Virus record (IMG/VR): IMGVR_UViG_3300009036_000501
Origin: an uncultured virus (IMG/VR IMGVR_UViG_3300009036_000501)
Taxonomy: Duplodnaviria > Heunggongvirae > Uroviricota > Caudoviricetes
DNA length: 20,000 nucleotides
Reading direction: 5' to 3' (one strand)
The notes under the pieces were generated by a model. That model was given only the letters and a program-made list of their open reading frames with translations. It did not search any database and was not told where the DNA came from. The position numbers and the translations under genes are program-made. Below are positions 220 to 19,073 of this stretch, in pieces; within the stretch, counting starts at the first letter, position 1; each line of letters begins with the position of its first letter.

Positions 220-266
220 ACATAAATGAAAGGGAGTACCAAGAAGGTACTCCCTTTCATTTATGT
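220..266. terminator. Intrinsic terminator-like hairpin with a 21-bp perfect stem, possibly bidirectional
   Basis: ACATAAATGAAAGGGAGTACC-aagaa-GGTACTCCCTTTCATTTATGT is a perfect inverted repeat 5 nt after the stop codon at 214. Confidence 0.8.
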
Positions 267-309
267 ATTTACCAAAAACATTCCGGAACAGAGAAGGAAA
301 TACATATTA

Positions 310-338
310 TTGATTCGTCTCCTGGCACATGGTAGAAT
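310..338 (+). promoter_or_regulatory. SigA-type promoter of the methyltransferase gene
   Basis: TTGATT (310-315), 17-nt spacer, TG-n-TAGAAT (333-338, extended -10), upstream of RBS GAGGAG (364-369). Confidence 0.6.
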
Positions 339-375
339 GGTGTATGTATTTTACTATGTATGTGAGGAGATAAAT

Positions 376-2979
376 ATGAGAGATACATCATTCAAGTTTA
401 TAGATTTGTTTGCTGGTATAGGAGGTTTTCGTACAGCTTTTGAAAGACTGGGCGGTCAATGTGTTTTTTCTTCAGAAATAAACCCTTTTGCACAACAAGC
501 CTATAACATATTGCATGGGGAAGTACCAGCGGGAGATATACGACAAGTACAGGCAGATGATATCCCTGATTTCGATTTGCTATGCGGAGGCTTTCCTTGT
601 TTTGCTGCAGGTGAATTGGTCACTACATCTATGGGTATGAAGCCCATCGAAGATATAAAAAAGGGTGACTATGTGCTAACACATAAAAATCGGTTTAGAA
701 AAGTAGTTATGCCTATGGTGAAACACAAACAAGGAATCTTCCGGTTAAGTGTTTTGGGAAGCCCGAGCACTTTTGTTACTGAAGAGCACCCATATTATGT
801 ACGTCGTTATACCAGAGTTTGGAATAATGATAAGAGGACATATGAAAGAGTGTGGGGGCCCCCTGAATGGAAAGCTGTCAAAGATTTAACCAAAGAGGAT
901 TATGTTGGGTTTGCCACAAATAAAAAGGCAGAGAACATAAAGAACTTAACTGCTGAGCAGTGTTGGCTTTTAGGGCGATATGTCGCAGATGGGTATATCC
1001 GCAATTATGCACGAAAAGGGAGACAGAACTCACATCATCATATTGTCACCTTCTGCATTGGAAAACACAAACTTGATAATTTTCGACAACGAGTGACTGA
1101 GTATTCTCTAGGTGTGACAGAAGAAAAAACTTCATACAAATGCAGAATCATAAACGAACACTTTATGAATCTGTGTATTGAGTGTGGGCGAGGCGCGCAC
1201 AATAAACAAATTCCTGGATACATCATGGATTTACCTGAAGATCTCCTCCAGCATTTTTTAGATGGGTACATATCTGGGGATGGGGATGTGAACAAAAATA
1301 ACGTGATAAAAGCCACAACTGTTAGCAGACAACTAGCCTACCAAGTATCCCAGGCAGTGCAAAAAGTGTATAAAAAGCCTTGTAGCATTATCAAAGTAAA
1401 AACGGCTGATCAAAAAGTTATTGAGGGACGAGTAGTGAATCAATCTGATTACTTTCAGATACGATTCAAGACCACTCCTTCCAACCGAGATAGATCTAAA
1501 TATCTTGATGATATGCTTTGGTGCCCCGTGAAAGATCTAACTTGGATTCCTAATTATGACTCCGTAGTCCACAACTTCGAAGTTGAAGAAGACAATAGTT
1601 ATGTAGTCAATAACTGTGTCGTACACAACTGTCAGGCCTTCTCCTTTGCTGGCAAGAGGCTCGGATTTGCCGATGAAACTAGGGGTACCTTGTTTTTTGA
1701 AATAGCCCGCATAGCAGAAGCTAAGAAACCGAAGTACCTATTCCTAGAGAACGTGAAAGGTCTGGTGAACCACGAAAAAGGACGTACTCTAGACACAATT
1801 GTCAGGACTCTATCGGATCTGGGATATTCTGTAGACTTTGAAGTGATAAACTCAAAGTACTATGGCGTTCCTCAAAATAGAGAACGTATCTATATTGTAG
1901 GTGTGTTGGATGGGGAAGTAAGCCCATATGTTGTCTCAAAGAAGAAGTCCATTATATCGGCAGCAAAGAAAAGACAAAATGAGTATGGGGATATACGGTC
2001 TTTCAACTTTGCATGGCCTACAAATTCCGAGGTCACTACATCTGTACGTGATATTATGGAAGACAATGTTGATGACATCTTCTATATGACTGAGGACAAA
2101 ACTGAAAAATTGATAGATGTGTTGACAAACCGAGGGTACTTTTCTGAGGAACGTCTTGGCAGGATGGAAATGGTGGGATTGTTACATTACCGTGGCACAG
2201 ATCAAACACGGCGTGTATATGATGCGAATGGGTTGGCTCCTACATTGACGGCACATAGTGGTGGAAGTACAGAACCGAAGGTTCTATATTCAGAAGATAT
2301 CATGGAGTTTTCCATGGGTGATGGCATAACCTGTTGTGTGGATGCTAGTTACTCCAAGGGGGTTTCACCCAATTGTGTAGGCAAGGGTAGGCGTACTCAT
2401 ATTGTGGAACCTAATAGTGCAAATCTCACACCTAAGTGGAAGATACGTAAACTTACACCGGTGGAGTGTTTCAGACTCCAGAGCTTTCCCGAGTCCAGCA
2501 TTATCAAATTAAAACAATCCGGCATCAAAAACACTCAGCTATACAGAATGGCGGGGAACTCAGTAACAGTAAATGTCATACAAAGTATTGGAACTAATAT
2601 AGTCCATTTATCTAATGGGAGTTCACCTGTACAAGAGTGCCTGCCGTTAGAACCTCAGACCTCTATGACATGCGAATATGAGAAAAATGAACATGAAAGA
2701 CGAGTTTCCAAGGCCCCATCTGATGTGACTGAACAATGTGGTTCATTTACTCAACTCATGTTTAAGTATATTAAACACACTAAGATAGTGGAAAGAAAAA
2801 CAACGACAGATTTATACAATGACGTCAAGAGTTTTGCAAATGAACTAAATATTTCAGATCCTGGTTTAAGCAACCCTATATATTTTGGCACTATTATGAA
2901 GATAAAATCTGAAGAATTAGCCAATTTAGGTATACGTGTCAATAAAAGCAAGAAGCATTGGTCAATAACTCGGCCATAA
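376..2979 (+). CDS. dcm: Intein-containing C5 DNA (cytosine-5)-methyltransferase, orphan, similar to multispecific Bacillus phage MTases
   Basis: Motif I FIDLFAGIGG; motif IV GGFP|CQAFS (split by the intein); motif VI LENVKGL; motif VIII PQNRERIY; motif IX RKLTPVECFRLQSF; motif X LYRMAGNSV. Start moved from 226 to ATG 376 because of RBS GAGGAG and because 226 lies inside the terminator hairpin. Confidence 0.95.
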   Translation: MRDTSFKFIDLFAGIGGFRTAFERLGGQCVFSSEINPFAQQAYNILHGEVPAGDIRQVQADDIPDFDLLCGGFPCFAAGELVTTSMGMKPIEDIKKGDYVLTHKNRFRKVVMPMVKHKQGIFRLSVLGSPSTFVTEEHPYYVRRYTRVWNNDKRTYERVWGPPEWKAVKDLTKEDYVGFATNKKAENIKNLTAEQCWLLGRYVADGYIRNYARKGRQNSHHHIVTFCIGKHKLDNFRQRVTEYSLGVTEEKTSYKCRIINEHFMNLCIECGRGAHNKQIPGYIMDLPEDLLQHFLDGYISGDGDVNKNNVIKATTVSRQLAYQVSQAVQKVYKKPCSIIKVKTADQKVIEGRVVNQSDYFQIRFKTTPSNRDRSKYLDDMLWCPVKDLTWIPNYDSVVHNFEVEEDNSYVVNNCVVHNCQAFSFAGKRLGFADETRGTLFFEIARIAEAKKPKYLFLENVKGLVNHEKGRTLDTIVRTLSDLGYSVDFEVINSKYYGVPQNRERIYIVGVLDGEVSPYVVSKKKSIISAAKKRQNEYGDIRSFNFAWPTNSEVTTSVRDIMEDNVDDIFYMTEDKTEKLIDVLTNRGYFSEERLGRMEMVGLLHYRGTDQTRRVYDANGLAPTLTAHSGGSTEPKVLYSEDIMEFSMGDGITCCVDASYSKGVSPNCVGKGRRTHIVEPNSANLTPKWKIRKLTPVECFRLQSFPESSIIKLKQSGIKNTQLYRMAGNSVTVNVIQSIGTNIVHLSNGSSPVQECLPLEPQTSMTCEYEKNEHERRVSKAPSDVTEQCGSFTQLMFKYIKHTKIVERKTTTDLYNDVKSFANELNISDPGLSNPIYFGTIMKIKSEELANLGIRVNKSKKHWSITRP
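598..1629 (+). mobile_element. Intein with LAGLIDADG homing endonuclease (344 aa)
   Basis: N-terminal block A CFAAGELVTTSMGMKPIEDIKKGDYV; block B VTEEHPYY; LAGLIDADG-like blocks WLLGRYVADG and FLDGYISGDG; blocks F/G VHNFEVEEDNSYVVNNCVVHN followed by Cys+1. Excision restores GGFPCQAFS. Confidence 0.95.
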
Positions 2980-3451: not shown

Positions 3452-3481
3452 TTGTGTATTACACTTCAGACAGTATATAAT
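3452..3481 (+). promoter_or_regulatory. Possible SigA-type promoter
   Basis: TTGTGT (3452-3457), 18 nt, TATAAT (3476-3481), upstream of RBS AGGAG (3501-3505). Confidence 0.45.
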
Positions 3482-3513
3482 TGGAAATAAATACATGTCT
3501 AGGAGTGTCGTAT

Positions 3514-4668
3514 ATGCAAAATATGTTGCTTAATTTACGTAGTCTACAACAAATAAATACTCGCATTTCGGAGAAATCCACCGAAATAAAACAAACCAAA
3601 GCATTTTACACCCAACTGTTTAGCGAAAATTTGCAAGAACTTACGTCTTTGCTAGGTGGACTAAAGAAAATGCGAGACTTGCATACTCGCTCTGCTGAGT
3701 CACTTTATCCTTTACAGTCTGGGTTGTTTGATCTATCGCATATCCAGGAACTCACACGATCTCTTTCAGATGAGATTGATCATCTGACTCAGCAAGCGGA
3801 AGTTAGTATGAATGAACAAAAGGGCACAGAGAAATTGGCAAACCTCCACGAAGAACTGGAACGCCTAGGGAATGAGCAGGTCAATCTGGAAAAGGCATTG
3901 GTTCAAGGTTTTTGGGACTTGTCTGATAACCTGAAGTCTGTACAGTACGAAACAGCCGATATGTTTGCTGTACACTATGATGTCCTTACACACATCTTGG
4001 TAACTGAACATTCTGTTTCACCTGTTGATGCTGCTGACATTGTAAACCTTGTCACTCACTACGTGAAGGGTAAAAGTGAATATAGTTCTAGCAGTGTCGA
4101 ATTAGTAAGAGTGGAAAAAAGTAAGGTCGGATCTTCTTTCGGATTAGGGGAAGACCCTTTTGAAGTGACCGTGAATGGTCACACACTACAAAAATTTGAT
4201 CTTGATAAAACAATCGACAAAAAGAAAAACCACATGATCATCTCCGGTACAGTTGACGTGCAGATAGAAGGGGATGTGTCATGTGTTCTTGATGAGGACG
4301 CAGGTGTTTTCGCTACGAAAGACCAGCATTGGATTCTTCAAGGATATACTTTACAAAATTATATTGCCGTGGCTACAGCACATGTAGAATTTGTTTTTGA
4401 TATGGACAGATGTTTGGAATCGTCTGATATTGATCTCCGACAAGAAGAAGTGAAATTTACGCTTCCAGTGCTAAAGATCGAACCATGTGTAAATTCAGAC
4501 ACTCTCAACCTTTTGGTAAAGATGTTAATGGAAGAAGTCCAAAAAGTTGATGTTGAAGAACTAGCGTGGGGAACAATATTAAGTGAAGTGGTATCAAAGG
4601 ATATTGAAGATTCACTTAAATCTGACATCGAAGATATGGCGAAAGAAATAGAATTTACAGTGAGCTGA
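3514..4668 (+). CDS. Acidic hypothetical protein with N-terminal coiled coil (~384 aa)
   Basis: Long ORF with RBS AGGAG 8 nt before ATG 3514. The N-terminal third is helical with heptad-like L/E/Q/K patterning, and the C-terminal half is acidic with beta-like segments. Family not recognised. Confidence 0.85.
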   Translation: MQNMLLNLRSLQQINTRISEKSTEIKQTKAFYTQLFSENLQELTSLLGGLKKMRDLHTRSAESLYPLQSGLFDLSHIQELTRSLSDEIDHLTQQAEVSMNEQKGTEKLANLHEELERLGNEQVNLEKALVQGFWDLSDNLKSVQYETADMFAVHYDVLTHILVTEHSVSPVDAADIVNLVTHYVKGKSEYSSSSVELVRVEKSKVGSSFGLGEDPFEVTVNGHTLQKFDLDKTIDKKKNHMIISGTVDVQIEGDVSCVLDEDAGVFATKDQHWILQGYTLQNYIAVATAHVEFVFDMDRCLESSDIDLRQEEVKFTLPVLKIEPCVNSDTLNLLVKMLMEEVQKVDVEELAWGTILSEVVSKDIEDSLKSDIEDMAKEIEFTVS

Positions 4669-4678
4669 ATACTTTTTT

Positions 4679-4705
4679 AAAGAGGTGGCATATGCCACCT
4701 CTTTT
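4679..4705. terminator. Intrinsic terminator
   Basis: AAAGAGGTGGCATATGCCACCTCTTTT, a perfect palindrome with a U-tract, 10 nt after the stop codon at 4668. Confidence 0.8.
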
Positions 4706-4713
4706 CCTATTTA

Positions 4714-4743
4714 TTGACAGGCCTGTACATATCGTGATAAACT
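4714..4743 (+). promoter_or_regulatory. SigA promoter of the nucleotide-metabolism operon, overlapped by TGTACAT repeats
   Basis: TTGACA (4714-4719), 18 nt, TG-a-TAAACT (4738-4743). TGTACAT occurs at 4724, 4743 and 4764. Confidence 0.65.
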
Positions 4744-4790
4744 GTACATATTAAAACAAGGTATGTACATGATATAAGGATGTGGATATA

Positions 4791-5411
4791 TTGCAACCTG
4801 GACTATTTGTTGTGTTTGAGGGACCAGAAGGAGCCTCGAAAGGAACACAATCCCAACTATTTGCGGATTATTTACAGGATAAAAAAATCCCATACATACA
4901 CACACGAGAGCCAGATGGCCCTATTCGTAGTGTTTTGCTTGATCCTGCAAATACGGGAATGATACACGATGACACAGAAGTGTTGTTGTACGCTGCTTCA
5001 CGCGTTAACAAATTTTTAACCGAAATAAAACCTGCGCTTGAAGAAGGAAAAGTTGTGGTATGTGATCGTTACCTTGAGTCCTCTCTCGCATATCAGGGTT
5101 ATGCTGGTGGAGTGGATCTAGCGAAGATACTGAGCATCCATGACGCTTTTATAAATGATAGCAGGGTGACTCTGTTGTTTGACATTTCTTATGAAACAAG
5201 CAGGAAAAGGTTGGGGACACGGGGAGAAGCGCTAGATAGGCTCGAGATGAAGTCAGAAGTATATCACAGAAAAGTTATTGATGGTTATAGGAAACTAGCC
5301 AAAGATTACTCTCACATTAAGCGTATAGATGCGAATCAAACAATTGATCAAGTACATTCAGAAGTGTTGAGTTTATTGACTCCACTACTGGAAGAAAGAG
5401 GGATGTTATGA
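4791..5411 (+). CDS. tmk: Thymidylate (dTMP) kinase family protein
   Basis: LFVVFEGPEGASKGTQ (variant P-loop), TREP, EVLLYAASR, IKPALEEGKVVVCDRYLESSLAYQG, DRLE, IDANQTIDQV. Start is TTG 4791 (RBS AAGGA at 4776-4780) or GTG 4782. Confidence 0.92.
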   Translation: MQPGLFVVFEGPEGASKGTQSQLFADYLQDKKIPYIHTREPDGPIRSVLLDPANTGMIHDDTEVLLYAASRVNKFLTEIKPALEEGKVVVCDRYLESSLAYQGYAGGVDLAKILSIHDAFINDSRVTLLFDISYETSRKRLGTRGEALDRLEMKSEVYHRKVIDGYRKLAKDYSHIKRIDANQTIDQVHSEVLSLLTPLLEERGML

Positions 5412-5923
5412 GTAAACGAGTAATTATATCTCTCATTTCTCCACCTGGAGGTGGGAAAACAACTATACTTAAGCATTTGTCCGAGCATCACCAATTGCCC
5501 ATACTGAGTTCGGGAGATATAGCGAGGCAAATGCAGAGGGATACAGAAACGAATTTCCTAATACAAGGGGGATTTGCTCCTGAAGAAGAGATGAGACGCA
5601 GACTCTTAGAATCCATTGAGACATTATTTGTCTCTAGCAACGTGATACTGGCTGATGGGTTCCCGAGATTCGTTGACCAGCTGAATTGGTTGGAAAACTC
5701 TCTAGATGGCGTGGATATTGTATTGTACCACTTGGATGTGCCATTGGACAAATGTAGAGACAGACTGCAGTCTCGCAATCGTTCTGATGACAATGAAGAA
5801 ACTATAGAGGCAAGATTCAAACAATATACTGAACAAACAGAGCCAATTGTCACTTCGCGACATCTGCGACGGTACAATTATGATTTTGTGACTCAAGTAA
5901 TTCTTGCGGCAAAGAAAAATTAG
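5408..5923 (+). CDS. adk: Adenylate kinase/UMP-CMP kinase family nucleoside monophosphate kinase (short-LID type)
   Basis: P-loop SPPGGGKTT, LSSGDIAR, DGFPR..Q, short lid RNRSDDNEETIEARF..Y...TEPI. ATGA overlap with the tmk stop codon. Confidence 0.85.
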   Translation: MSKRVIISLISPPGGGKTTILKHLSEHHQLPILSSGDIARQMQRDTETNFLIQGGFAPEEEMRRRLLESIETLFVSSNVILADGFPRFVDQLNWLENSLDGVDIVLYHLDVPLDKCRDRLQSRNRSDDNEETIEARFKQYTEQTEPIVTSRHLRRYNYDFVTQVILAAKKN

Positions 5924-5936
5924 GAGGTTTAATACA

Positions 5937-6938
5937 ATGCAAATGTGCTATCTTGCAGGTGCTATCGATATGGTTATTCCAGAACAGGCTAGAGGTTGGA
6001 GAGACAATGTCTCTAAAGTGTTAAACGATCATGGCATCCACACTTTTGATCCAGCTTCTGCTTTTAATCTATCTCGTAAGGATAGCGAGACATGGTTGTC
6101 CAAAACAGATATGGTTATCAAACTAAACAACATGGCCTTAGACAGTTCCGAGATTATGCTGGCCGAAATGGAATTTAATTGCCAGCATACAGGCACTACC
6201 CGCGAACTTATTCGTGCCAGTGAACAAGATGGGAAGCTTGTTGTGGTGTGGAACTCAAGCGAGTATACTCCCCTATATCTCACAGATATCCCCAATCTTG
6301 TTATCAAATCTACACTGGCAGAGTGTGTGGAATATATTATCGAAAAAATAACAGGGGTCGCTCCTAGTCCCGACGTATGCCGTTCTGTATTGGAAACTAA
6401 AGTGGACAAACCTGCCATTAAAGTTATGCTGACTGAAAAGCATCCTTTAATGATCGCAAAAGAACGTGGTGAAATTTCCGATATTGATCCTTCAATGCTG
6501 TTATTCAAGAAACACAGCGATGATACTGGGTATGACATTATGTGCACTGAGAACGTGACAGTACCTCCAGGGGGAAAAGTACAAGTGCCAACACATTTGG
6601 CTATCCAGCCGCCAAAAGGTTACTGGTATCGTTTGGTTGCTAGATCCTCAACATTCCATGTCCATGAGATGCTGGTGGTAGAAGGCATCATCGATACACA
6701 ATTCCGAGGTGTGTTGTACTGCAACATTCAGAACATGAGCAATGAGACTAAGACAATCCGTGCTGGTGATTCTGTGGCCCAACTGATATTCCATGAGATC
6801 GTAGGCGAACATTGGGATGTGTCAGTGCACGACTCTCTGGATGCTACGGATCGTGGTGAAGGTGGATTCGGAAGTACAACTGCTTCTAAAGACTTTATCG
6901 TGGAGATGTACCAAAAATACGCTTCCGTGACGGTTTAA
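5937..6938 (+). CDS. dut: Fusion: N-terminal nucleoside 2-deoxyribosyltransferase/N-glycosidase-like domain + C-terminal trimeric dUTPase
   Basis: N-terminal domain: YLAGAI, WR, FDP, SSEIMLAE, TGTTRELIRA. C-terminal dUTPase motifs: TGYDI, ARSS, GIIDTQFRG, GDSVAQLI, DRGEGGFGST. RBS AGGAGG before ATG 5937. Confidence 0.88.
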   Translation: MQMCYLAGAIDMVIPEQARGWRDNVSKVLNDHGIHTFDPASAFNLSRKDSETWLSKTDMVIKLNNMALDSSEIMLAEMEFNCQHTGTTRELIRASEQDGKLVVVWNSSEYTPLYLTDIPNLVIKSTLAECVEYIIEKITGVAPSPDVCRSVLETKVDKPAIKVMLTEKHPLMIAKERGEISDIDPSMLLFKKHSDDTGYDIMCTENVTVPPGGKVQVPTHLAIQPPKGYWYRLVARSSTFHVHEMLVVEGIIDTQFRGVLYCNIQNMSNETKTIRAGDSVAQLIFHEIVGEHWDVSVHDSLDATDRGEGGFGSTTASKDFIVEMYQKYASVTV

Positions 6939-6958
6939 CGTACCGATTGTTCTTTTTT

Positions 6959-6996
6959 GAAAAGGGGGATTCCCAATGTGGGGATCCCCCTTTTTC
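6959..6996. terminator. Intrinsic terminator, probably bidirectional
   Basis: GAAAAGGGGGATTCCCA-atg-TGGGGATCCCCCTTTTTC downstream of the dUTPase stop codon. Confidence 0.85.
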
Positions 6997-7124
6997 TGGT
7001 TAAATATTGTAATTATTGTGGGTATGTATATATACATGATTTAATAAGAATATAAGTTGATATTAAGTGGCAGATAGAGTGATATAGTAGGACATAATGA
7101 ACTAACGAAAATATACTGTAATGA

Positions 7125-7153
7125 TTGTACTAAAATACAGTGTATGCTATAAT
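7125..7153 (+). promoter_or_regulatory. Probable main promoter of the transfer operon
   Basis: TTGTAC (7125-7130), 17 nt, TG-c-TATAAT (7148-7153). The -35 is flanked by the inverted repeat ACTGTA (7115-7120)/TACAGT (7136-7141). Confidence 0.65.
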
Positions 7154-7199
7154 GGCGATAGTAGTTCATACGAATGTGTGGAAGGAGATGATAAAGCCA

Positions 7200-7856
7200 A
7201 TGATGGGCCACACACATTTCACATTCGGTGCATTATTCGCAGCTGTCGCTGTCAACACTGGGCATGCGGAACCGACAGTGGCCTTTTTTCTTGGCTCATT
7301 AATAGGTTCACTAGCTCCAGATTTAGATCACCCGCAGGCAATGTTGTCCAAAAAAATACCATTGAGTGGAGCGACAATAGGATTTCTCAGGCATAGAACG
7401 CTAACGCATTCTTTGGTTGGACTGGCTATAGCCTATTCTATAGGGAAATACTTAGTACCCCTACTCCTAAGCAAGTTATGGTCTTTATTGATGACAAGCT
7501 TACCTGGGCAAGTAGACACATTGCTCCAGATCCAAGACCTAAGTGCTACATACTTCGGATCCGGATTTTTGTGGGGGTTCATGCTGGGATATATCAGTCA
7601 CATTTTTATAGACTTGTTCAATCCCATGGGTGTCCAACTATTTTATCCCTTCGAGTTTCTGCCGAATAGAGGATGGGTTAATCCACCTTTTGGTCTTGGG
7701 ATAGGAACGGGCACTATTTGGGAACTGATGTTTGCAGTAGTGAGTTTGCTCATTACCACATACGTTAGTCCCATGACCGGTTTATCTGTGGGTATATTAG
7801 TCTTTATATTCTGGTACCTCATAGGGAAACCCGGTCTTCCAAGATATAGACTTTAG
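7200..7856 (+). CDS. YdjM-family membrane-bound metal-dependent hydrolase
   Basis: MMGHTH, GSLAPDLDHP, HRTLTHSL, GYISHIFIDLFNPMGVQLFYP, with several hydrophobic helices. RBS AAGGAGATGA lies 8 nt before ATG 7200. Confidence 0.88.
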   Translation: MMGHTHFTFGALFAAVAVNTGHAEPTVAFFLGSLIGSLAPDLDHPQAMLSKKIPLSGATIGFLRHRTLTHSLVGLAIAYSIGKYLVPLLLSKLWSLLMTSLPGQVDTLLQIQDLSATYFGSGFLWGFMLGYISHIFIDLFNPMGVQLFYPFEFLPNRGWVNPPFGLGIGTGTIWELMFAVVSLLITTYVSPMTGLSVGILVFIFWYLIGKPGLPRYRL

Positions 7857-7874: not shown

Positions 7875-8735
7875 ATGTTGCGTATCAATCCAAGAGTAAT
7901 ACCAAGGATAATAGCTTGGCTATTGCTAGTATTTATTGCAGGTGCTCTGTTGATTAATATTCTAGGCGGGAAGGAACAGGTGACTGAAGAGTCCCAGTCC
8001 AATCTCGATGATCAGATCTCCAGCATCGCGGTAGCTTTTACCAAGCAATGGATGACTCTAGAAGAGAAAGAAACACCTGATGTATTCCGGAAGAGAATCG
8101 AACCTTATGTAACACCTGCCCTACTAACTAATCAAGCCGGTAGGACGAATGTTACTAATGTAACGAGTCAACGGGTCATTGACGCTTGGATGAAGTCTTA
8201 CACGAAACTCGATGCTACTCATTTCACAGCAGATGTAGTGGTTTATGTATCCTCTAACAACATTAAGGCCTATAAAGTGGTAAATGTCCCACTGGCACTT
8301 AATGCAGAAACCAATCAGCTTGTCGTGAATGAAAGACCGAGTTTTTCACCAGTGATAGCCACTAGTGATGTGGGAAGCATGGACTTTGGTAAACAAGTGA
8401 ATGTAGCTAACACAGATCAATTAAGAGTAACACTTTCCAATTTCTTCCAGAAGTATCTTGGTTCTTCAGATCCTGCTGAGTTATCGAACTTCCTAATGGA
8501 TAGTTCCAAAAACACCATTATGCCGAAAGGTGGATTGGTGGAATTTAAAAACATAGTAACCATGCAGACATTCTTAATGGGGTCTGCAACCGAAGAATCA
8601 ACTGTTAAAATGTATTTGGCTAGAGTAACGGTAGCTACACAAGATGTTTTCTCTAACAGTGTGGTGGAGTCCGACTACAGCTTGATGATACAAGAACAAG
8701 GTGATAAATACCTGATACAGAAAATATCGCCTTAA
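7875..8735 (+). CDS. tcpC: Conjugation protein TcpC/ConB family (VirB8-like)
   Basis: Single N-terminal TM segment followed by two NTF2-like repeats (AVAFTKQWMT...VNVPL...VVNERPSF; LSNFFQKY...YSLMIQEQGDKYLIQKI). First position in an MPF_FA gene cluster; RBS GGAGG. Confidence 0.8.
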   Translation: MLRINPRVIPRIIAWLLLVFIAGALLINILGGKEQVTEESQSNLDDQISSIAVAFTKQWMTLEEKETPDVFRKRIEPYVTPALLTNQAGRTNVTNVTSQRVIDAWMKSYTKLDATHFTADVVVYVSSNNIKAYKVVNVPLALNAETNQLVVNERPSFSPVIATSDVGSMDFGKQVNVANTDQLRVTLSNFFQKYLGSSDPAELSNFLMDSSKNTIMPKGGLVEFKNIVTMQTFLMGSATEESTVKMYLARVTVATQDVFSNSVVESDYSLMIQEQGDKYLIQKISP

Positions 8736-8756
8736 CTAAACCTAGGAGGAATTATT

Positions 8757-9125
8757 ATGACTACTCAAAAAATGTTGAAAATTGTAATGATTGCCCTGAT
8801 GGCGCTTGTTATTGGACTCTCCTTTGCGGCACCTAATGTGGCACTTGCAGATGGTTTTACAGATGCTCCGACTAGCTTGACAGACACTAGCGGAACAGGA
8901 ACAGACAGTCCGGTAGGTAAACTTGGTGGATGGGTAGCTCAACAATTGATGTACCTCTACGCTTTGATGGTAGCTGTAGTTTCCATCGTCTTTGTTGTTA
9001 AACACGAATACAGCAAACTGGTGGCGTTCTTGGTAATTGCGATCATCGTTGCTATCCCTATCTTCGCACCAAACGTAATCCCATCCATCGCTGAGTCCAT
9101 CTCCAAAGCGATCACAGGAAAATAA
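8757..9125 (+). CDS. Small T4SS membrane protein at the ConC/TcpD position, VirB2 pilin-like
   Basis: Signal-peptide-like N-terminus ending VALA-DG, followed by two hydrophobic helices separated by KHEYSK. Lies between tcpC and tcpE. Confidence 0.6.
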   Translation: MTTQKMLKIVMIALMALVIGLSFAAPNVALADGFTDAPTSLTDTSGTGTDSPVGKLGGWVAQQLMYLYALMVAVVSIVFVVKHEYSKLVAFLVIAIIVAIPIFAPNVIPSIAESISKAITGK

Positions 9126-9128
9126 GTT

Positions 9129-9166
9129 TAGCATTAATTGGCAACCTTCGGGTTGCCAATCTGCTA
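9129..9166 (+). other. Intergenic RNA hairpin with cUUCGg tetraloop
   Basis: ATTGGCAACC-TTCG-GGTTGCCAAT (9137-9160), extendable by TAGCA/TGCTA. No U-tract. Confidence 0.7.
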
Positions 9167-9197
9167 TCTACATAACGTGCTTGAGGAGGTAAATAGT

Positions 9198-9941
9198 GTG
9201 TCGAACAAGAGAGTTGGACCTTTCAGTAGTTACAAAAGCTTATTCAAAATACAACACGTTATTTACAAATTAGGAAACATAAGACTCTGGGGTTTTGGGG
9301 TCAGTTTTGACCAGTTGATCACTGGTGCTGTCGTAGCAGCCTTTTTGATGGCTCTCTATGCTATATTCCCTTTGCTAAATTACTTTTTCATTAATAAGTG
9401 GATAGTTATAGTTGTCGCTTTTTTAGCTTCCATGTGGGCGAGCGCAAGGTACGAATTAGGCGGTAAGTCAATCCTCATGTGGACAATAGGAATAATTCTT
9501 TGGTCTGTAAGAGGTAAATACACCGCGCGTGGTCGTACTATTAAAAAGCCACGGTACAAGAAAGAAGGAATATACTTTTATGCGTCATCCCGTCGTGTAG
9601 AAACAACGAGCACAGGTGCTCAAAGGTGTGTAACACCTGCAGTGATTAGCTACGATCAGTTAGAGCATATAAAGGTTTCAGGTGCACACAAACTTCGCAT
9701 AGATCCAAGCGGCAAACATATAAAAATAACTCCCCTACGACAGGCTAAGAAAAGTGCCATAGTGGATGGAGAGATGATCCTCTTACCTAAGAAAAAGATA
9801 AGCTCTTTGACAACCCCTGATGTTCCGATCATCATAGATAACACACTCATTATTTCCCAACCAGCATCCTCTCCAAAAAAGGTAGTGAAACACAAACCAA
9901 AATATGGGATGGCGCTGTTTGTGGAAGAAAACAATTCGTAA
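9198..9941 (+). CDS. tcpE: Conjugation membrane protein TcpE/ConD family (VirB3-like) with C-terminal extension
   Basis: SYKSLFKIQHVIYKLGNIRL..VSFDQL N-terminus, two TM helices, then GGKSI. Immediately upstream of VirB4. GTG 9198 follows RBS GGAGGT. Confidence 0.75.
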   Translation: MSNKRVGPFSSYKSLFKIQHVIYKLGNIRLWGFGVSFDQLITGAVVAAFLMALYAIFPLLNYFFINKWIVIVVAFLASMWASARYELGGKSILMWTIGIILWSVRGKYTARGRTIKKPRYKKEGIYFYASSRRVETTSTGAQRCVTPAVISYDQLEHIKVSGAHKLRIDPSGKHIKITPLRQAKKSAIVDGEMILLPKKKISSLTTPDVPIIIDNTLIISQPASSPKKVVKHKPKYGMALFVEENNS

Positions 9942-9969
9942 ACAATCTAATTTAGGCGGTGAATGTACA

Positions 9970-12444
9970 ATGAAGTTTCCAATAATCTTCTGGCAACAAA
10001 ACATTATATTTGACAACAAGCGAAGAGCTTTCGCTGTCTATAAATTGCCACTGATAAATTATGCTCTGTTATCTATAAACGATAAGATTGGCGCGATGTA
10101 CAATCTGAGAGAATTAGTGTACAATGCGCAAGGAGAATACCATATTTTGTCTCTTTGTCGTGATTTTGATATCGGAACATATGAGGAACAGCTTAGCAGC
10201 TTGCAAAGGGATGATCTCAAGACTACAGATCAATCTCTACCTCAGGAATTCAGAGACCATGTAGTCGCAACATATAATGGACTGTCAAATAGGAAGCCGT
10301 GGAATCGGCACCTATACATCTTAAAGCAAATACCGCTTAAAAACGTGTTGTTGCAAGTCAAAAGCTTGCATCACCTAAAATCCAACGTGCGAGGATTGGC
10401 TAGTTCCCTAATAGATATGTTCGTGCCGTCTGAGCCAACCATCCCAGAGCAATTGTTAGAAGCAGCTATGATGCAGGAAGATACAATCGCACAAGATATT
10501 CGGAATGGTATGGGGGGACAACGGGCTGATTCTAAAGATATTGAGTGGATGATCAGACATAACCTTTTCCGCTCACTTGGTGAACCTGAAGTTACTTCGG
10601 ATTGGGCTCCTGCTTCGGTTGTAGAAGTAGCAGGTACTGGTAAAAAACTCATTCCTATGAAAAATGAGATAGTTTCCCACATAGATGACACCTTCATGTA
10701 TGAAGGATTAGATCATGTGAAGATAGATCATGTGGATGGGGAACACAAAGGTAAAGAATCCTACCAAGCCTTTTTAGCTCTCACGAATTATCCCGAACAT
10801 TTACGTTTTCCAGGGTTAGAGTTCTACCAATGGTTGGACGAATTCTCTTTCCCAGTTGACATCAGTATTAGGCTGAATAGTTATGAAAGCAAACATGCAC
10901 AAATGAAATTGTCAGGAAAGATGAAAGAGTTGCAAGATCAAAAAGAACAACACGCCAACTCTACGACAGGTGTACCCCTACATATTCATGAGAATGAGTA
11001 TAAAGGTAAAGACTTGGAAGGCAAAATTAAAAGTGGAATGCCATTACTGGATGTGACAACGGTCTTTTGTATAGCAGCATCAGATAAAGAGACCCTGGAA
11101 AAGCGTGTAGATGAAGTAATGGGATGGTATCGTCCAAGACAGTTCAAATTGGTACGGACACCTGGAGATCAGAAAAAGTTCTTTTCCACCTTTATACCGA
11201 CATACGATGTGAAATTGAAAGAGCACACTGTGGCCATGGATCCTGAATTCTTCGCTTCAGGCATGATGAACGCATCTAAACAAATTGGTGATCCGAAAGG
11301 ATTCTACTTGGGGGATAATGTCAGTGGCTCAATGGCTCCTGTACTCATGCACCCTCTACGAGGGCCAAGATTGCTCAATAGATCTGCGGCTCTAGGCATA
11401 TTAGGTACACTTGGAGGCGGTAAGTCAGTAACTAGGAAGTATATCTTGTATGCGGCAATGACTATATGGGGAGCTAAGGTCATTTCGATTGACCCCAAAA
11501 ATGAGGATTTCTGTTTCTCCCTCATACCCGAAATAGCGAAAAACATGAAACAAGTAGACCTTGGTCCAGGATCAAGCATCACTATTAATCCATTTCACAT
11601 AAGTCCTGTGGAAGCAACCTCGAGATCGATAGTCACAGACTTGCTGTTCATGCTTTTAAATGCCGAGAGTGACGACAAAGAAGTACGACAAATGGCTATA
11701 CACAAAGCACTTGGGTATGTAATGGAAAAAACACGATCTGAGAGACATATGGATGCTGTAATTGAAGCACTAACGCGAGTGAACTCAGAAGAAGGCCTAG
11801 ATACGGGGATAAGGGATGAAGCCAATAGATGTAAGTTGTTGCTGGAATCCTTCAAAGAACTGAATTATTCTAGTCTGTTGTTCTCCAAAGAGAGTAATAT
11901 TGATGCCTCTGCTCAACTGACAGTATTCAACTTCGCAGGTCTTCCATTGCCAGCAGACAAAAATTCAAAAATGTCAAATTCCGAAAAATTTGGTGCTGCT
12001 ATCCTCTACCTAGTAACATCGTTCTCTCGAGAAGTGCTGATGTCCAAAGAATACAGAAGTCTGTTGAAAATTCTGTCGATTGACGAAGCTTGGAAAATGA
12101 TGATGACTCCAGAGGGAATCCGATTGATCACAGAGATTATACGTATGGGTCGGTCGATGGGTATTATGCCTATCATTGCAACTCAGAATGCCAATGACCT
12201 AAGCGGAACAGATATTCGAAACAATCTAGGAATGATTATGATGTTCCGTAATCCTGACAAAACGGAAATAGAGCAGTGTCTTGAAATGATCGGACTAGAT
12301 AAAGAAGACGAGCACTTAAAAGAACGTATACCAAACTTCAAATCTGGTCAATGCATATTCCGAGATATAGAGGGACGTATAGGAGAGATCCAAGTACGAC
12401 CTCGGCCTGGCAGATTGTTGGATGTATTTAATACATCTGTGTGA
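9970..12444 (+). CDS. virB4: VirB4-like conjugation ATPase (TcpF/ConE family)
   Basis: MKFPI N-terminus, Walker A GTLGGGKS, IDPKNE, Walker B SIDEAW, RMGRS, ATQN, GQCIFRDIEGRIG. About 824 aa. Confidence 0.93.
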   Translation: MKFPIIFWQQNIIFDNKRRAFAVYKLPLINYALLSINDKIGAMYNLRELVYNAQGEYHILSLCRDFDIGTYEEQLSSLQRDDLKTTDQSLPQEFRDHVVATYNGLSNRKPWNRHLYILKQIPLKNVLLQVKSLHHLKSNVRGLASSLIDMFVPSEPTIPEQLLEAAMMQEDTIAQDIRNGMGGQRADSKDIEWMIRHNLFRSLGEPEVTSDWAPASVVEVAGTGKKLIPMKNEIVSHIDDTFMYEGLDHVKIDHVDGEHKGKESYQAFLALTNYPEHLRFPGLEFYQWLDEFSFPVDISIRLNSYESKHAQMKLSGKMKELQDQKEQHANSTTGVPLHIHENEYKGKDLEGKIKSGMPLLDVTTVFCIAASDKETLEKRVDEVMGWYRPRQFKLVRTPGDQKKFFSTFIPTYDVKLKEHTVAMDPEFFASGMMNASKQIGDPKGFYLGDNVSGSMAPVLMHPLRGPRLLNRSAALGILGTLGGGKSVTRKYILYAAMTIWGAKVISIDPKNEDFCFSLIPEIAKNMKQVDLGPGSSITINPFHISPVEATSRSIVTDLLFMLLNAESDDKEVRQMAIHKALGYVMEKTRSERHMDAVIEALTRVNSEEGLDTGIRDEANRCKLLLESFKELNYSSLLFSKESNIDASAQLTVFNFAGLPLPADKNSKMSNSEKFGAAILYLVTSFSREVLMSKEYRSLLKILSIDEAWKMMMTPEGIRLITEIIRMGRSMGIMPIIATQNANDLSGTDIRNNLGMIMMFRNPDKTEIEQCLEMIGLDKEDEHLKERIPNFKSGQCIFRDIEGRIGEIQVRPRPGRLLDVFNTSV

Positions 12445-12469
12445 TTTAATTAACTTGGAGGTGAAAAAC

Positions 12470-15400
12470 TTGGACAGTCTTAGAAAGCATAAGAAGGCCA
12501 CAGCGGCCTTCTTGACCTTCATACTCTTGATCACTTTTCTTATCTTCCCGCCCAATGCAAAAGCAGCAGAAGATAAGAGTAAGGCAAATGGTGAAAACAC
12601 CACATCCAGTGTTTTCTGGTCTTCAAAAGATATGTTGGGATCTGTACCTCCCAACACATTGATATTACATGAACAATATCCTAATACCTTCTCAAGATAC
12701 AGTTTGGATGCACCCCTCAATCTCAAAGTATATGACAAGACTCCGTGGTGGAAACCCAATGTAGTTAAACGGGTGGAAGATGCTGCGAACACTTGGTCTC
12801 TGACTAGAATACTCACAGTTATCGCGGATTTTGGCTTTAGTTTGGTCAAGCTCATGACGACAATCTCCATCTATGTGATTCAGATTTCAATGGGGGCACA
12901 GTGGTCTAGTGCGCTATTTTCCCTCTTTGGGGCGATAGCAAAGGTCATAGGTGTCACGCTCGTGACTAAGAATCTATTTTACTTAGCGATGATCTGTTTA
13001 GGTGGTTACTTAGTATTCCAAGGTCTAATCAAGAGAAAACTTGGTACAACATTAAGTGAGACAGCACTAAGCATAGCTTTACTGGCATTCACCATAATAT
13101 TTATCACTAACCCAGGAAAAGTCATGGGTGGTGTAAACTCAGGTACCGATCTCATAGGAACTTGGATATTGCAAATAGCTGTTTCTCAAGATAGTACTGA
13201 GAATATCAATAGTGCTATAAAAGATGACAACTATGTGACAAATAATAACATTGACAACCAAGTTACTGCCAGCACCAGTTTGTCTGATCTGAAAAATGCC
13301 GCTATAGTGCAAATAACTAATAAATTGTGGGCGCTTCAAGTACGTGCGCCATGGGATATACTACAGTTTGGTCAACTCGATGTAAATGTCAATGACCCAC
13401 AAAAGATACGTGAAGATGGTGGAGTAAAAATACATGAGTATGAAATCGATGCAATACTGAAAATCCTAGAAAATAACTCTGTTGAAATTGGTGACGGTGT
13501 ATCTTCAGATAAACCAGATGCGCAGAAACTGAAAGAAAAAGGTATAGCGGCTGGAGAAAGTTGGGGTAATGCTATACTGGGCCTGAGTGCAGGAGAAGGT
13601 GAATTGCGTTCCATCCTAGTCAGTGTGTTAGGCAATAAAGGAACTGGCGAAGGTAAAGGAGAAGCAGTCTCGATGCATAATGGCGCTGTAGAAGCACTAA
13701 ATGACGGAGGAACAAAGATATTCGTAGTATTGATACTGCTCATAACTACAGCACTAACTACATTCTTCATTTGTACAATCGCTCTAGGATTGTTCTTAGC
13801 ACAGTTGATCGTATTGATAGCAATGGTTGTGGGACCTTTTGTCTTGATGTTGTCTGCACTGCCACAGTTTGGGCACAGATACATCAAAAACTGGGGGCTA
13901 ATTACACTAGGCGCTTTCGGAACCAAGATTATATACTTTACTCTAATGGCAATAATGTTCTTGCTAATTTCCACACTTATGACTCTAGCTTTCGACATAA
14001 ACACACTGGGGTTGGATGAGCAAACAAAGAGCCAGCTTAACATGTTTTCTCCTGATGGCACAACATCCTTACTACTTGTCCAAGTTCTTGTCATACTTGT
14101 CATGTATGGTCTATCCGTGTTCAGGAAAAAGATGTTCCAAAAGAACACTTCCGGCACATTTGGCGTAGCGGGTGCACTCATACACAACACAGCAAGTGGC
14201 GGAAACTGGGGCCAAAGCATGAGTGTAGTACGAGAATCCATGCAAGGGCAGTCATATGGACAATATGTCGTTGGTAGTAGAGAAAACCGTAAGTTTAATA
14301 AAGATATGGGATTCAATAACAATCGCCAATTAAACAAAGGAAATGATGCTGATTCACGTAGAGATGATGAAAACACATATGGATCCTCTGCTGATGAGAA
14401 ACAAGGAACAGGAAATGAATCTTTGCAGAATAATGGAGAGAATGTGCAACAACTGGGACAAGGCGAAGGTAATCCCGACTACACAGATGAGAACGGCGCA
14501 GATGCTCCAGGTGCAGGGGGTACATCACCTAACAATAAGGACACTGATGACTATGAATTTAACAACGGAGCCAATGCTAGTGAAGGTTCTGGGTCACAGA
14601 AAGAGAATAGGCTGAACTGCCCTATCAACGGAGCCACATGTAGTAATGAATCTGTTGCCTATGGCAGTGGTAGTTCAATGTGTTCTGTAACCGGCAAAGT
14701 TTGCCCATACAGAAATATGGCAGAAACTGAGCACTACAGTCAAATGATGCAACTGCGACGTCAACGAAATGCTAGCAATACAACCGACTCAGTAGCAGCA
14801 AGTAACGGGCCGAGGAGGAACGCTGGAAGCAGTACGGAAGGTACAAATACACCAACAAACTCTGGAGAAACTCAGTACCCCAATAACACTCGCATGCGGT
14901 CCGTACAAGAGAACGGAGAAGGAACTCAACAACCGAACAACACTCGTGTACGATCTGTACAGGATGGGGATACAGGTATTGACGGATCTGGACGTGGCGT
15001 GGTAATATCCGAGGGTACAGTTAATGGGGTTAATATTGTTGGTTCACGTAGGAACACGTATAGTGATGAAGATGATCATGATTTCGATGACTCCCGTTCC
15101 TCAGATGAATTCCTGAGTTCCCGTGGAAGAAGTCATAATAGCATATCCATAACCGGTGGCAATGTGAATGCAGAGAACATTTTTGTTGCAGATCAAGCTA
15201 CCGTACACCAAGATGGATCCGTTTCTGCTAGTCCGAATAGACGAGATTATACAGGTAATGACGAGGTCGCCGCTACACGCGAATCCGCAAAACCTCAGTC
15301 GCCAGCTCGTGATCAGGATAAACAAAATACATCCAAGAAGGCAAAAGAAAACACAACTGACAAGTCAGCAAACAAAAAACCTGCGGGAGGGAATACAGAA

Positions 15401-15625
15401 CCTCCAAAACCACCTGTACAGCGTAGTAGCAACAAAACGGAAGATAAACCGCAACAAAGCAAGAATAACTCATCTTCTGGCAAAGATCAGTCACCACAGC
15501 CACCTAGAGGAGTAAGAGTTAACCCACAGTCAACAAATGAAGGATCAAGACAAACTGACAATGACTTTATCCCTGGTGACCGTGGCTTAGGCCGTGGTCC
15601 TGGACCCGGATCGAGTCAAGAATAA
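12470..15625 (+). CDS. Polytopic T4SS membrane protein (VirB6-like, TcpH/ConG family) with a long disordered C-terminal tail
   Basis: Signal peptide (AKA-AE), multiple TM helices, PWDILQFG motif, then ~480 aa rich in N/S/G/D/Q. Follows VirB4. TTG 12470 follows RBS GGAGGTGA. Confidence 0.8.
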   Translation: MDSLRKHKKATAAFLTFILLITFLIFPPNAKAAEDKSKANGENTTSSVFWSSKDMLGSVPPNTLILHEQYPNTFSRYSLDAPLNLKVYDKTPWWKPNVVKRVEDAANTWSLTRILTVIADFGFSLVKLMTTISIYVIQISMGAQWSSALFSLFGAIAKVIGVTLVTKNLFYLAMICLGGYLVFQGLIKRKLGTTLSETALSIALLAFTIIFITNPGKVMGGVNSGTDLIGTWILQIAVSQDSTENINSAIKDDNYVTNNNIDNQVTASTSLSDLKNAAIVQITNKLWALQVRAPWDILQFGQLDVNVNDPQKIREDGGVKIHEYEIDAILKILENNSVEIGDGVSSDKPDAQKLKEKGIAAGESWGNAILGLSAGEGELRSILVSVLGNKGTGEGKGEAVSMHNGAVEALNDGGTKIFVVLILLITTALTTFFICTIALGLFLAQLIVLIAMVVGPFVLMLSALPQFGHRYIKNWGLITLGAFGTKIIYFTLMAIMFLLISTLMTLAFDINTLGLDEQTKSQLNMFSPDGTTSLLLVQVLVILVMYGLSVFRKKMFQKNTSGTFGVAGALIHNTASGGNWGQSMSVVRESMQGQSYGQYVVGSRENRKFNKDMGFNNNRQLNKGNDADSRRDDENTYGSSADEKQGTGNESLQNNGENVQQLGQGEGNPDYTDENGADAPGAGGTSPNNKDTDDYEFNNGANASEGSGSQKENRLNCPINGATCSNESVAYGSGSSMCSVTGKVCPYRNMAETEHYSQMMQLRRQRNASNTTDSVAASNGPRRNAGSSTEGTNTPTNSGETQYPNNTRMRSVQENGEGTQQPNNTRVRSVQDGDTGIDGSGRGVVISEGTVNGVNIVGSRRNTYSDEDDHDFDDSRSSDEFLSSRGRSHNSISITGGNVNAENIFVADQATVHQDGSVSASPNRRDYTGNDEVAATRESAKPQSPARDQDKQNTSKKAKENTTDKSANKKPAGGNTEPPKPPVQRSSNKTEDKPQQSKNNSSSGKDQSPQPPRGVRVNPQSTNEGSRQTDNDFIPGDRGLGRGPGPGSSQE
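14864..14970 (+). repeat. Two degenerate ~54-bp coding repeats
   Basis: GETQYPNNTRMRSVQEN and GEGTQQPNNTRVRSVQDG in the VirB6-like tail. Confidence 0.7.
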
Positions 15626-15633
15626 TAACTGAC

Positions 15634-15671
15634 GTGGGGGAAGGGGCGTATGTGTCCCTTCCCCTCATTTA
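15634..15671 (+). terminator. Intergenic hairpin (weak terminator or attenuator)
   Basis: GTGGGGGAAGGGGCG-tatg-TGTCCCTTCCCCTCAT followed by TTA, between the VirB6-like gene and the wall hydrolase RBS. Confidence 0.5.
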
Positions 15672-15686
15672 TAGGGAGGGATATGC

Positions 15687-19045: not shown

Positions 19046-19073
19046 ATAAATAGCATTGAGGAAGGTGTTATAT

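Follow-up and report, generated by a model that had tools for sequence, protein, structure and literature searches.

What three coupled genes of nucleotide metabolism are doing directly upstream of a type IV secretion system (T4SS) is the question raised by a 20,000-nucleotide stretch (the window) of the uncultured-virus record IMGVR_UViG_3300009036_000501 from IMG/VR. The genes, three co-directional open reading frames (ORFs) on the plus strand, encode a thymidylate kinase homolog (Tmk), a short nucleoside monophosphate (NMP) kinase and a fusion of a nucleoside 2'-deoxyribosyltransferase (NDT)-fold domain to a dUTPase (Dut) domain. An initial annotation, made from the letters of the DNA alone, had proposed that the operon handles a non-canonical nucleotide and remodels dNTP pools. 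In this it was probably right, as the fusion is homologous to the phage enzyme DmtZ-DutZ and the operon is linked to a PurZ-type gene. The likeliest such nucleotide is the purine 2-aminoadenine (Z), and not 5-hydroxymethyluracil (hmU) or uracil (U), and we consider it likely, judging from the sequence and its neighbourhood, that the operon is the nucleotide-pool arm of a Z-DNA module.

Three loci came from a metagenome scan: the window's own contig, here called L007 (subtracting 4064 from an L007 position gives the window position), and the related L008 and L009. The operon and its signals lie in the window as follows.

4679-4704, plus strand: intrinsic terminator of the upstream unit (a 395-aa ORF), with an 11-bp stem, six GC pairs and a T-rich tail
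4714-4743, plus strand: sigma-70-like promoter of the operon, TTGACA-18-TAAACT with a TG extension (10 of 12 matches)
4723-4777, no strand assigned: candidate operator, three (C)TGTACAT(AT) copies 19-21 bp apart that overlap the -10 element and the leader
4782-5411, plus strand: tmk, dTMP kinase homolog (TIGR00041), with the in-frame TTG at 4791 as its likely start
5408-5923, plus strand: NMP kinase, short-form and adenylate-kinase-like, 171 aa (Pfam ADK)
5937-6938, plus strand: fusion gene, 333 aa (Pfam dUTPase and an NDT-like N-terminus)
5937-6401, plus strand: DmtZ-like N-terminal domain of the fusion, NDT/DNPH1 fold (AlphaFold2 model, Foldseek, conserved residues)
6402-6938, plus strand: linker, DutZ-like domain of trimeric-dUTPase fold and clade-specific C-terminal helix (Pfam dUTPase, Foldseek)
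6960-6999, plus strand: intrinsic terminator closing the operon (hairpin 6960-6994), with 16-nt arms that are 94% complementary, a 3-nt loop and TTTTT

We confirmed that tmk, the NMP kinase gene and the fusion gene form one transcription unit. The ATG of the NMP kinase gene overlaps the tmk stop codon as ATGA (5408-5411), the 13-nt gap before the fusion gene contains AGGAGG, and AAGGA stands 9 nt upstream of the TTG at 4791, which makes this codon the likelier tmk start. The upstream terminator is a perfect 13-nt inverted repeat. L008 has the same layout in a different sequence: a terminator stands before a promoter that carries an inverted repeat, and a second terminator follows the three genes. 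Its promoter, at the equivalent place, reads TTGACT-17-TACAAT and is overlapped by the inverted repeat CCCCATGCA...TGCATGGGG (L008 8797-8845), and its closing hairpin is the equivalent of the one in the window. Since promoter-like sites between 3000 and 8000 are no commoner than in shuffled sequence (16 found, 13.6 ± 3.2 expected), the independence of the unit is argued from its position and from this conservation of layout. The three genes, overlap and gap of the initial annotation, and the unit's own promoter and terminator beside a T4SS, were all recovered. Its description of the unit as self-contained is right, but the operon does not stand alone: it is the downstream part of a PolA...PurZ...tmk-NMP kinase-dmtZ::dutZ block.

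As for the candidate operator, four of the seven TGTACAT matches in the window fall within 4724-4770, two of them being both strands of one palindromic site, and the window-wide count is not above chance (7 versus 4.6 ± 2.4). We infer that a repressor may bind these repeats. No tRNA gene or Rfam match was found in the window, L007 or L008. The sequence is present in two metagenome DNA sequencing runs, and none of the runs listed was an RNA run.

The third gene encodes the fusion. Residues 190-314 of its product match Pfam dUTPase (78.8 bits), and the N-terminus gives a sub-threshold match to Nuc_deoxyri_tr2 (19.1 bits, cutoff 30). The AlphaFold2 model of the whole protein has a predicted local distance difference test score (pLDDT) of 91.0, and that of the N-domain alone a pLDDT of 93.8 and a predicted template modelling (TM) score of 0.89. 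The best Foldseek matches of the N-domain were nucleoside 2'-deoxyribosyltransferases, MilB, BcmB and RCL/DNPH1 (TM 0.54-0.66), and the whole model retrieved trimeric dUTPases through its C-terminal domain (E about 1e-13), in agreement with the initial assignment as an N-glycosidase-like domain of NDT/DNPH1 fold joined to a trimeric dUTPase. Dut motifs I, II, III and V are recognisable, and D196, G198, D200, R236, S237, S238, D253, Q282, R306 and F311 are invariant.

An enzyme with this architecture has been characterised in Arthrobacter phage Wayne, where the NDT-Dut-like protein has two activities and is named DmtZ-DutZ (Poubanne et al., Nucleic Acids Res 2026, PMC12884076). Its DutZ half converts dATP, dGTP and dUTP to the dNMPs, characterised DutZ enzymes still hydrolysing dUTP well, and its DmtZ half either releases adenine from dAMP or loads the sugar phosphate on the Z base to give dZMP (PMC12884076). 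The window protein can be aligned with Wayne gp53 over its whole length (27% identity, E 2e-28), and the Immaculata and Hiyaa phage fusions align with it too. Mutagenesis or modelling of the enzyme of phage Ghobes identified Tyr6, Asp12, Pro57, Asn77 and Glu103 as key DmtZ residues, Tyr, Asn and Glu forming the catalytic triad and Asp conferring specificity for dAMP (PMC12884076). Through the Wayne alignment, and with the Ghobes numbering placed by motif spacing, these correspond to Y5, D11, P39, N64 and E90 of the window protein, which belong to the N-domain pattern conserved in a 59-protein alignment (Y5, A7, I10, D11, P39, N64, G86, E90, A94). Column counts show the five residues kept in all four proteins of the close group and in 53-55 of the 55 other fusions, with the specificity residue D11 invariant. 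By these sequence comparisons, the protein is a divergent new member of the DmtZ-DutZ family published in February 2026. The same comparison tells against the targets first proposed for the module, dUTP and 5-hydroxymethyl-dUMP (hm-dUMP) of hmU or U phages, as the characterised homolog acts on dATP, dGTP and dUTP and on dAMP (PMC12884076).

A profile search of 1.84 billion representatives retrieved 509 proteins at E of at most 1e-30, and the best 150 of these are mostly 275-330 aa long and match through both halves. With tblastn, 110 phage records have one match that covers at least 80% of the fusion, and the 25 listed of these 110 are all Arthrobacter or Streptomyces phages. In Immaculata and Hiyaa the fusion gene lies just downstream of DNA polymerase I and of a gene annotated as 'PurA-like' or '2-aminooxy adenylosuccinate synthetase'. 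Close kin are rare, with three relatives at 55-62% identity; scans of the genome-contig collection with the fusion returned no relative, and the plasmid collection has no DNA match to 4600-7100. The N-domain alone finds one weak and uninformative match among phages by tblastn: in Moorella phage MTATph1 it is encoded by a separate gene, flanked by those for terminase and portal. In print, all 98 PurZ0 phage genomes carry dutZ, 85 carry dmtZ and 77 have the two fused (PMC12884076).

The second line of evidence is the company that the operon keeps upstream, in the part of L007 that precedes the window.

L007:2774-3904, same strand as the operon: PurZ-type synthetase of the PurA family, 376 aa (PF00709, 146 bits)
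8.5 kb upstream of the fusion gene in L007, same strand: family-A DNA polymerase, cut by the locus end (252 bits)

The PurZ-type gene ends 160 bp before window position 1, which put it out of sight of the initial annotation, and is 6.1 kb upstream of the fusion gene. Its product carries the motif FGSCGKG, compared with WGDEGKG in E. coli PurA and FGSTGKG in PDB entry 6FKO. The best PDB matches are 6FKO, 6FM0 and 6FM1 (E 2e-45), ahead of archaeal PurA, S-2L PurZ and 7VF6; these three entries are filed as adenylosuccinate synthetase, and we take them to be PurZ of phage phiVC8. The protein also matches phrog_1211, '2-aminooxy adenylosuccinate synthetase' (7.5e-66). It is the Ser-for-Asp change at the catalytic Asp13 of PurA that distinguishes PurZ from PurA (PMC12884076). 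PurZ is also a short form of the enzyme, of about 360 aa. In a small maximum-likelihood tree (28 rows, with E. coli PurA as the drawing root), the element's protein groups with six close relatives (support 100/100), and this group falls within a clade of phiVC8, Acinetobacter-phage PurZ, vB_BpsS-140 and many Nudix-fused forms (100/99), separate from a clade (95/85) that holds the enzymes of Arthrobacter and Streptomyces phages. Should this actinophage clade be PurZ0, as we labelled it from its members, the element would pair a synthetase of the phiVC8 (PurZ) side with DmtZ-DutZ, a pairing absent from PMC12884076. Seven PurZ clusters are at least 76% identical, the window's own included, and a PurZ search of viral contigs returned one distant locus.

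The linkage is not peculiar to this element. In 10/10 loci that reach far enough upstream to be judged, a PurZ-type gene precedes the Dut or fusion gene on the same strand. Seven of them (Hiyaa, Immaculata, Wayne as L017, and the viral contigs L003-L006) have 45 bp to 1.4 kb between the two genes, and the other three (L007, L008 and vB_BpsS-140) have 6 to 9.5 kb. L003-L006 had been retrieved by Dut-domain peptide patterns and not by PurZ, and L009 begins too late for PurZ to be assessed. The gene order in the element is family-A polymerase, two small ORFs, PurZ-type gene, small ORF, C5 methylase, two ORFs, tmk, NMP kinase, dmtZ::dutZ and T4SS. L008 runs PurZ, small ORFs, methylase, ORF, tmk, NMP kinase, fusion, YdjM, TcpC, small membrane protein, TcpE, ATPase, ConG-like and CwlT-like, its proteins being 36-76% identical to those of the window, and L009 keeps methylase, ORF, tmk, NMP kinase and fusion. 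The operon order is kept in both relatives, at 52-76% protein identity, and this is the synteny for which the initial annotation had asked. Homologs of the kinase, the fusion and PurZ each occur on contigs of 31,038 and 175,240 nt, and these matching lengths, the only ground for it, suggest two more copies of the block.

Synteny apart, the PurZ searches brought up two other groups of proteins. Many metagenomic PurZ-type proteins of about 510 aa, 43-46% identical to that of the element, are fused to Nudix (PF00293), and some of them come from contigs hundreds of kb long; those inspected (P0166, P0237, P0252 and P0266) retain the Ser signature. PurA-family genes about 30-35% identical to PurZ were found in 36 plasmid records of Rhizobium, Agrobacterium, Ralstonia and Burkholderia, among them Agrobacterium rubi (L015). 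The Agrobacterium plasmid protein has 537 aa with an N-terminal P-loop extension, and forms a long branch next to E. coli PurA.

The two kinases are what the operon adds to the published enzymes. Tmk scores 137.9 bits against TIGR00041 (cutoff 83.25), is 37% identical to E. coli Tmk and has the DRY motif and the LID in the alignment. Its P-loop deviates, as first noted: it reads GASKGT in the window and GSSKTT in L008 and L009, compared with GAGKTT in E. coli, so that Ser replaces the Gly before the P-loop Lys in all three orthologs. The NMP kinase passes the broad Pfam ADK model (65.5 bits, cutoff 26.8) and falls below every NCBIfam adk cutoff (best 75 bits, cutoffs 152-426), which makes it an ADK-family NMP kinase and not a housekeeping Adk. 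It aligns with E. coli Adk at 34% identity, lacks the long LID, and keeps the P-loop, the NMP-site and catalytic Arg residues, the DD pair and, at the position of E. coli Q92, the Gln that in adenylate kinase reads the N1/N6 edge of adenine. From these residues the enzyme looks active.

The kinase family is rare, with six entries at E of at most 1e-10, one of them the window's own. Among 50,697 phage records it is matched in five, the best being the adk of vB_BpsS-140 (37% identity, E 1e-27). This adk directly precedes a dut gene, and the same phage holds the best phage match to the element's PurZ (41%). In the published pathway the phosphorylation of dZMP is left to 'uncharacterized phage proteins' (PMC12884076). 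As the NMP kinase is of the adenine type and shares a transcript with a dAMP-destroying enzyme, its most sensible role would be that of a dZMP kinase. Tmk, for its part, would phosphorylate dTMP made from DutZ-released dUMP and so feed dTTP, the partner of Z, a role suggested by the efficiency with which characterised DutZ enzymes still turn dUTP into dUMP.

Taken together, these assignments allow a pathway to be proposed. The DutZ domain would convert dATP to dAMP, dGTP to dGMP, the substrate of PurZ, and dUTP to dUMP. The DmtZ domain would then split dAMP into adenine and deoxyribose 5-phosphate, or pass its sugar phosphate to free Z base, yielding dZMP, and adenine nucleotides would in this way leave the DNA precursor pool. 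PurZ with the host PurB would turn dGMP into dZMP, which the adenylate-kinase-like enzyme would phosphorylate to dZDP. With Tmk phosphorylating the dTMP derived from DutZ-released dUMP, the operon would feed both partners of the Z:T pair, and the element's own polymerase would use the altered pool. The DutZ and DmtZ steps are in print for homologs and the PurZ step is backed by the signature residues together with published work, whereas for the kinase, Tmk and polymerase steps we argue from context.

Several observations weigh against this proposal. In the 24 kb seen, no homolog of DatZ, MazZ or DUF5664 was recognised. The polymerase fragment has Klenow and Bst as its best PDB matches and, as these two rank first, it was not assigned as DpoZ. 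In the tree PurZ sits on the side of phiVC8, and in print DmtZ-DutZ goes with the PurZ0 clade (PMC12884076); PurZ-type genes are moreover widespread in bacterial contigs, many of them fused to Nudix. The roles of both kinases are drawn from context alone, and the association of the NMP kinase with PurZ is sparse: 204 phage records have a PurZ-type match, and vB_BpsS-140 is the sole one confirmed among the five kinase-matching records, the other four not having been checked individually for PurZ. The P-loop of the window Tmk has K-G-T in place of K-T-T, alone among the three orthologs. A module that destroys dATP should also be harmful to a permanent host, and for a resident element this cost argues for tight repression, of which the operator-like repeats give only a hint.

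The Dut domain departs from the family as well, which bears out the motif deviations first reported. In the four proteins of the T4SS-linked elements, motif-IV R279 is replaced by S, S, S and A (R in 55/55 other fusions), and the clade shares A197T (A in 54/55), G255Q (G in 54/55) and G315T (G in 55/55), together with a C-terminal helix after motif V. The motif-IV Arg is a phosphate-binding residue of trimeric dUTPases, and these substitutions may have changed or weakened the Dut activity. The consistent loss of this one residue with the remainder conserved points to an active site that was remodelled rather than decayed, but among the sequence features it is also the chief ground for caution.

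Other explanations of the operon have to be set against the same data. It might be a generic dNTP-supply module for replication of the element, made up of an ordinary dUTPase, thymidylate kinase and adenylate kinase of the sort found in many large phages and plasmids, with the NDT domain serving as a salvage enzyme and the PurZ-type gene unrelated. Such a role would suit a Tmk that passes the dTMP-kinase equivalog cutoff, Dut motifs that are largely kept and the good hydrolysis of dUTP by characterised DutZ enzymes (PMC12884076), and Dut genes do occur in 87 plasmid records, mostly of Bacillus. However, 0/87 of these plasmid matches cover the N-domain of the fusion, whose specificity residue D11 does not vary, and the NMP kinase and the Dut domain (92.7 versus 102.55 bits for TIGR00576, 67 versus 103 for NF001862) fall below the housekeeping equivalog cutoffs. 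As the PurZ-type gene is also upstream in every assessable locus and the fusion goes with PurZ0 genomes (PMC12884076), we regard generic supply as unlikely. Cargo for counter-defence, in which the kinases, together with the Dut fusion, would refill or reshape the dNTP pools of recipients that carry dNTP-depleting defences, with no Z-DNA involved, would be in keeping with a position directly upstream of the T4SS genes and next to an orphan C5 methylase, a typical anti-restriction gene. It leaves the PurZ-type gene, the element's own polymerase and the dAMP-specific DmtZ residues unexplained and has no tested precedent in the literature searched, and we find it quite improbable.

The idea that the operon is itself an anti-phage defence, starving base-substituted phages by destroying dUTP, hm-dUMP or other phage precursors, had been raised at the outset. 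NDT-fold enzymes include glycosidases of hmdUMP and hmCMP, and such NDT-fold glycosidases are among the Foldseek relatives of the N-domain. PADLOC searches link Tmk to the candidate defence model PDC-M51B (4.9e-15) and, weakly, the NMP kinase to VakA (7e-4). The fusion, in contrast, has no match in PADLOC-DB 2.0, leaving Tmk as the only match to that candidate model; the neighbours are replication and Z-pathway genes, with no other defence genes in the 24 kb, and the characterised homolog acts on dATP and dAMP for its own replicon (PMC12884076). We therefore give defence very little credence, and supply of the nucleotide pool for Z-DNA remains the reading that we prefer.

The nature of the element that carries the operon depends on the genes around it, of which the following were identified in the window.

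226-2979, plus strand: C5 cytosine DNA methyltransferase with an intein (PF00145, 281 bits; Hint, LAGLIDADG and intein-splicing matches)
7140-7856, plus strand: YdjM-family membrane hydrolase, the first gene after the operon (PF04307, 100 bits)
7875-17681, plus strand: Firmicute-type conjugation (T4SS) genes (Pfam)

The conjugation genes are, in order, TcpC/ConB-like, a small membrane protein, TcpE/ConD-like, an AAA_10 VirB4/ConE-like ATPase, a 1067-aa ConG-like membrane protein and a CwlT-like SLT+M23 wall hydrolase, named as in ICEBs1 and pCW3. They are co-directional with the Z block, adjacent to it and syntenic with it in two diverged elements, L008 having a YdjM ortholog (64% identical) in the same place. 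Homologs of the ATPase were found in 980 plasmid records and 4 phage records, and a search of viral contigs gave no match. Nor did the element's own contig come up among viral contigs in the searches with Dut-domain patterns and with PurZ, which counts for little given the incomplete coverage of that collection. Contigs with the family reach 239-456 kb, the upper values being 239 kb for assemblies of the same element and 456 kb for a relative; one such contig is labelled as part of a rotifer assembly, and we take it to be bacterial DNA. From the distribution of the ATPase, the T4SS synteny and these contig sizes we favour a large plasmid or an integrative and conjugative element (ICE); a phage or phage-plasmid is possible. 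Neither a relaxase nor a coupling protein was found in the 24 kb seen. A bolder proposal would be that a conjugative element and not a phage makes Z-DNA with its own polymerase, PurZ, DmtZ-DutZ and two kinases, switched on together with the transfer genes, so that the DNA which it replicates or transfers would contain Z and evade the restriction enzymes of recipients. We hold this tentatively and consider it doubtful; close behind it comes a large phage, or a phage-plasmid, in which a Z genome and a T4SS are combined.

The remaining genes of the window call for short descriptions. The methyltransferase intein is inserted at the catalytic GGFP|C motif, and as the L008 and L009 orthologs lack residues 128-463, the insertion is a recent one. 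Between the methylase and tmk, the 395-aa ORF (3481-4668), which has no family match and only low scores in Atlas, occupies the same slot as a 367-aa ORF of L008 (7617-8720). Similarity between the two is confined to 62 N-terminal residues (27% identity, E 6e-5), so the slot diverges fast. The ConG-like protein (12422-15625) matches nothing in Pfam or PHROG. Its C-terminal tail, about 450 residues long, is of low complexity, with many Asn, Ser, Gly and Gln, and its residues 21-841 align with the L008 ortholog at 36% identity. The last ORF (19056-20000) runs off the window end and ends in several tandem Pro-rich PEPIPVPKPA repeats, with no family match.

In the literature searched, natural Z-DNA is described from phages only. 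Full-text searches returned no Z pathway in a conjugative element and no dedicated dZMP kinase, the incidental matches being mostly author names or left-handed Z-DNA. The locus offers a candidate for such a dedicated kinase, co-transcribed with a Tmk and DmtZ-DutZ, and physically joins a Z pathway to conjugation genes. A DmtZ-DutZ lineage paired with a phiVC8-side PurZ and with an apparently remodelled Dut site is useful for understanding how dUTPases turned towards purines, and the enzymes are of interest for producing Z-containing DNA in Gram-positive hosts. Were a conjugative element to make Z-DNA, it would be the first Z-DNA replicon outside viruses, which would widen the range of modified genomes and amount to a new anti-restriction strategy by which plasmids or ICEs, as mobile DNA, evade restriction.

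Among known systems, DmtZ-DutZ of Wayne (gp53, 306 aa) has the same domain order, NDT-like and then trimeric Dut-like, and is collinear with the window protein over its full length; Wayne also has a PurZ-type synthetase and PolA upstream, as the element does. In the Gordonia phage Ghobes, in contrast, DmtZ and DutZ are split. The window protein differs from the Wayne enzyme (27% identical) in its longer linker and extra C-terminal helix. The element differs from Wayne in that tmk and the NMP kinase gene precede the fusion in one operon, in its T4SS, in its Firmicute type and in a PurZ partner on the phiVC8 side instead of the actinophage side. With the PurZ-DatZ-MazZ(-DpoZ) cluster of phiVC8, S-2L and Acinetobacter phages it shares the Ser-signature synthetase, the tree clade with phiVC8 and a nearby family-A polymerase, whereas no DatZ or MazZ was recognised, so that removal of dATP would fall to DmtZ-DutZ, and two kinases are added. 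A preprint ascribes the later phosphorylation steps in phiVC8-type phages to the host GMP kinase (bioRxiv 10.1101/2025.10.22.683976).

The phage vB_BpsS-140 (MH884512) resembles the element in its PurZ (41%) and in its adjacent adk-dut pair, the adk being 37% identical to the NMP kinase. It is, however, a 55-kb tailed phage without a T4SS, its dut has no DmtZ domain, and in the locus taken from it (L011) no tmk stands beside the adk-dut pair. The conjugation modules of ICEBs1, Tn916 and pCW3 (Tcp) have TcpC, TcpE, a VirB4-like AAA_10 ATPase, a large ConG-like membrane protein and an SLT+M23 wall hydrolase in the order seen in the element. The nearest plasmid examples of the ATPase share only about 27% identity with that of the element. 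The literature covered by our search, which left out most subscription journals, records no Firmicute conjugation module beside a Z-DNA pathway. What the present locus adds to these systems is a pair of dedicated kinases, the pairing of DmtZ-DutZ with a PurZ that would belong to the phiVC8 side, a Dut domain with four changes specific to the clade, and a T4SS context.

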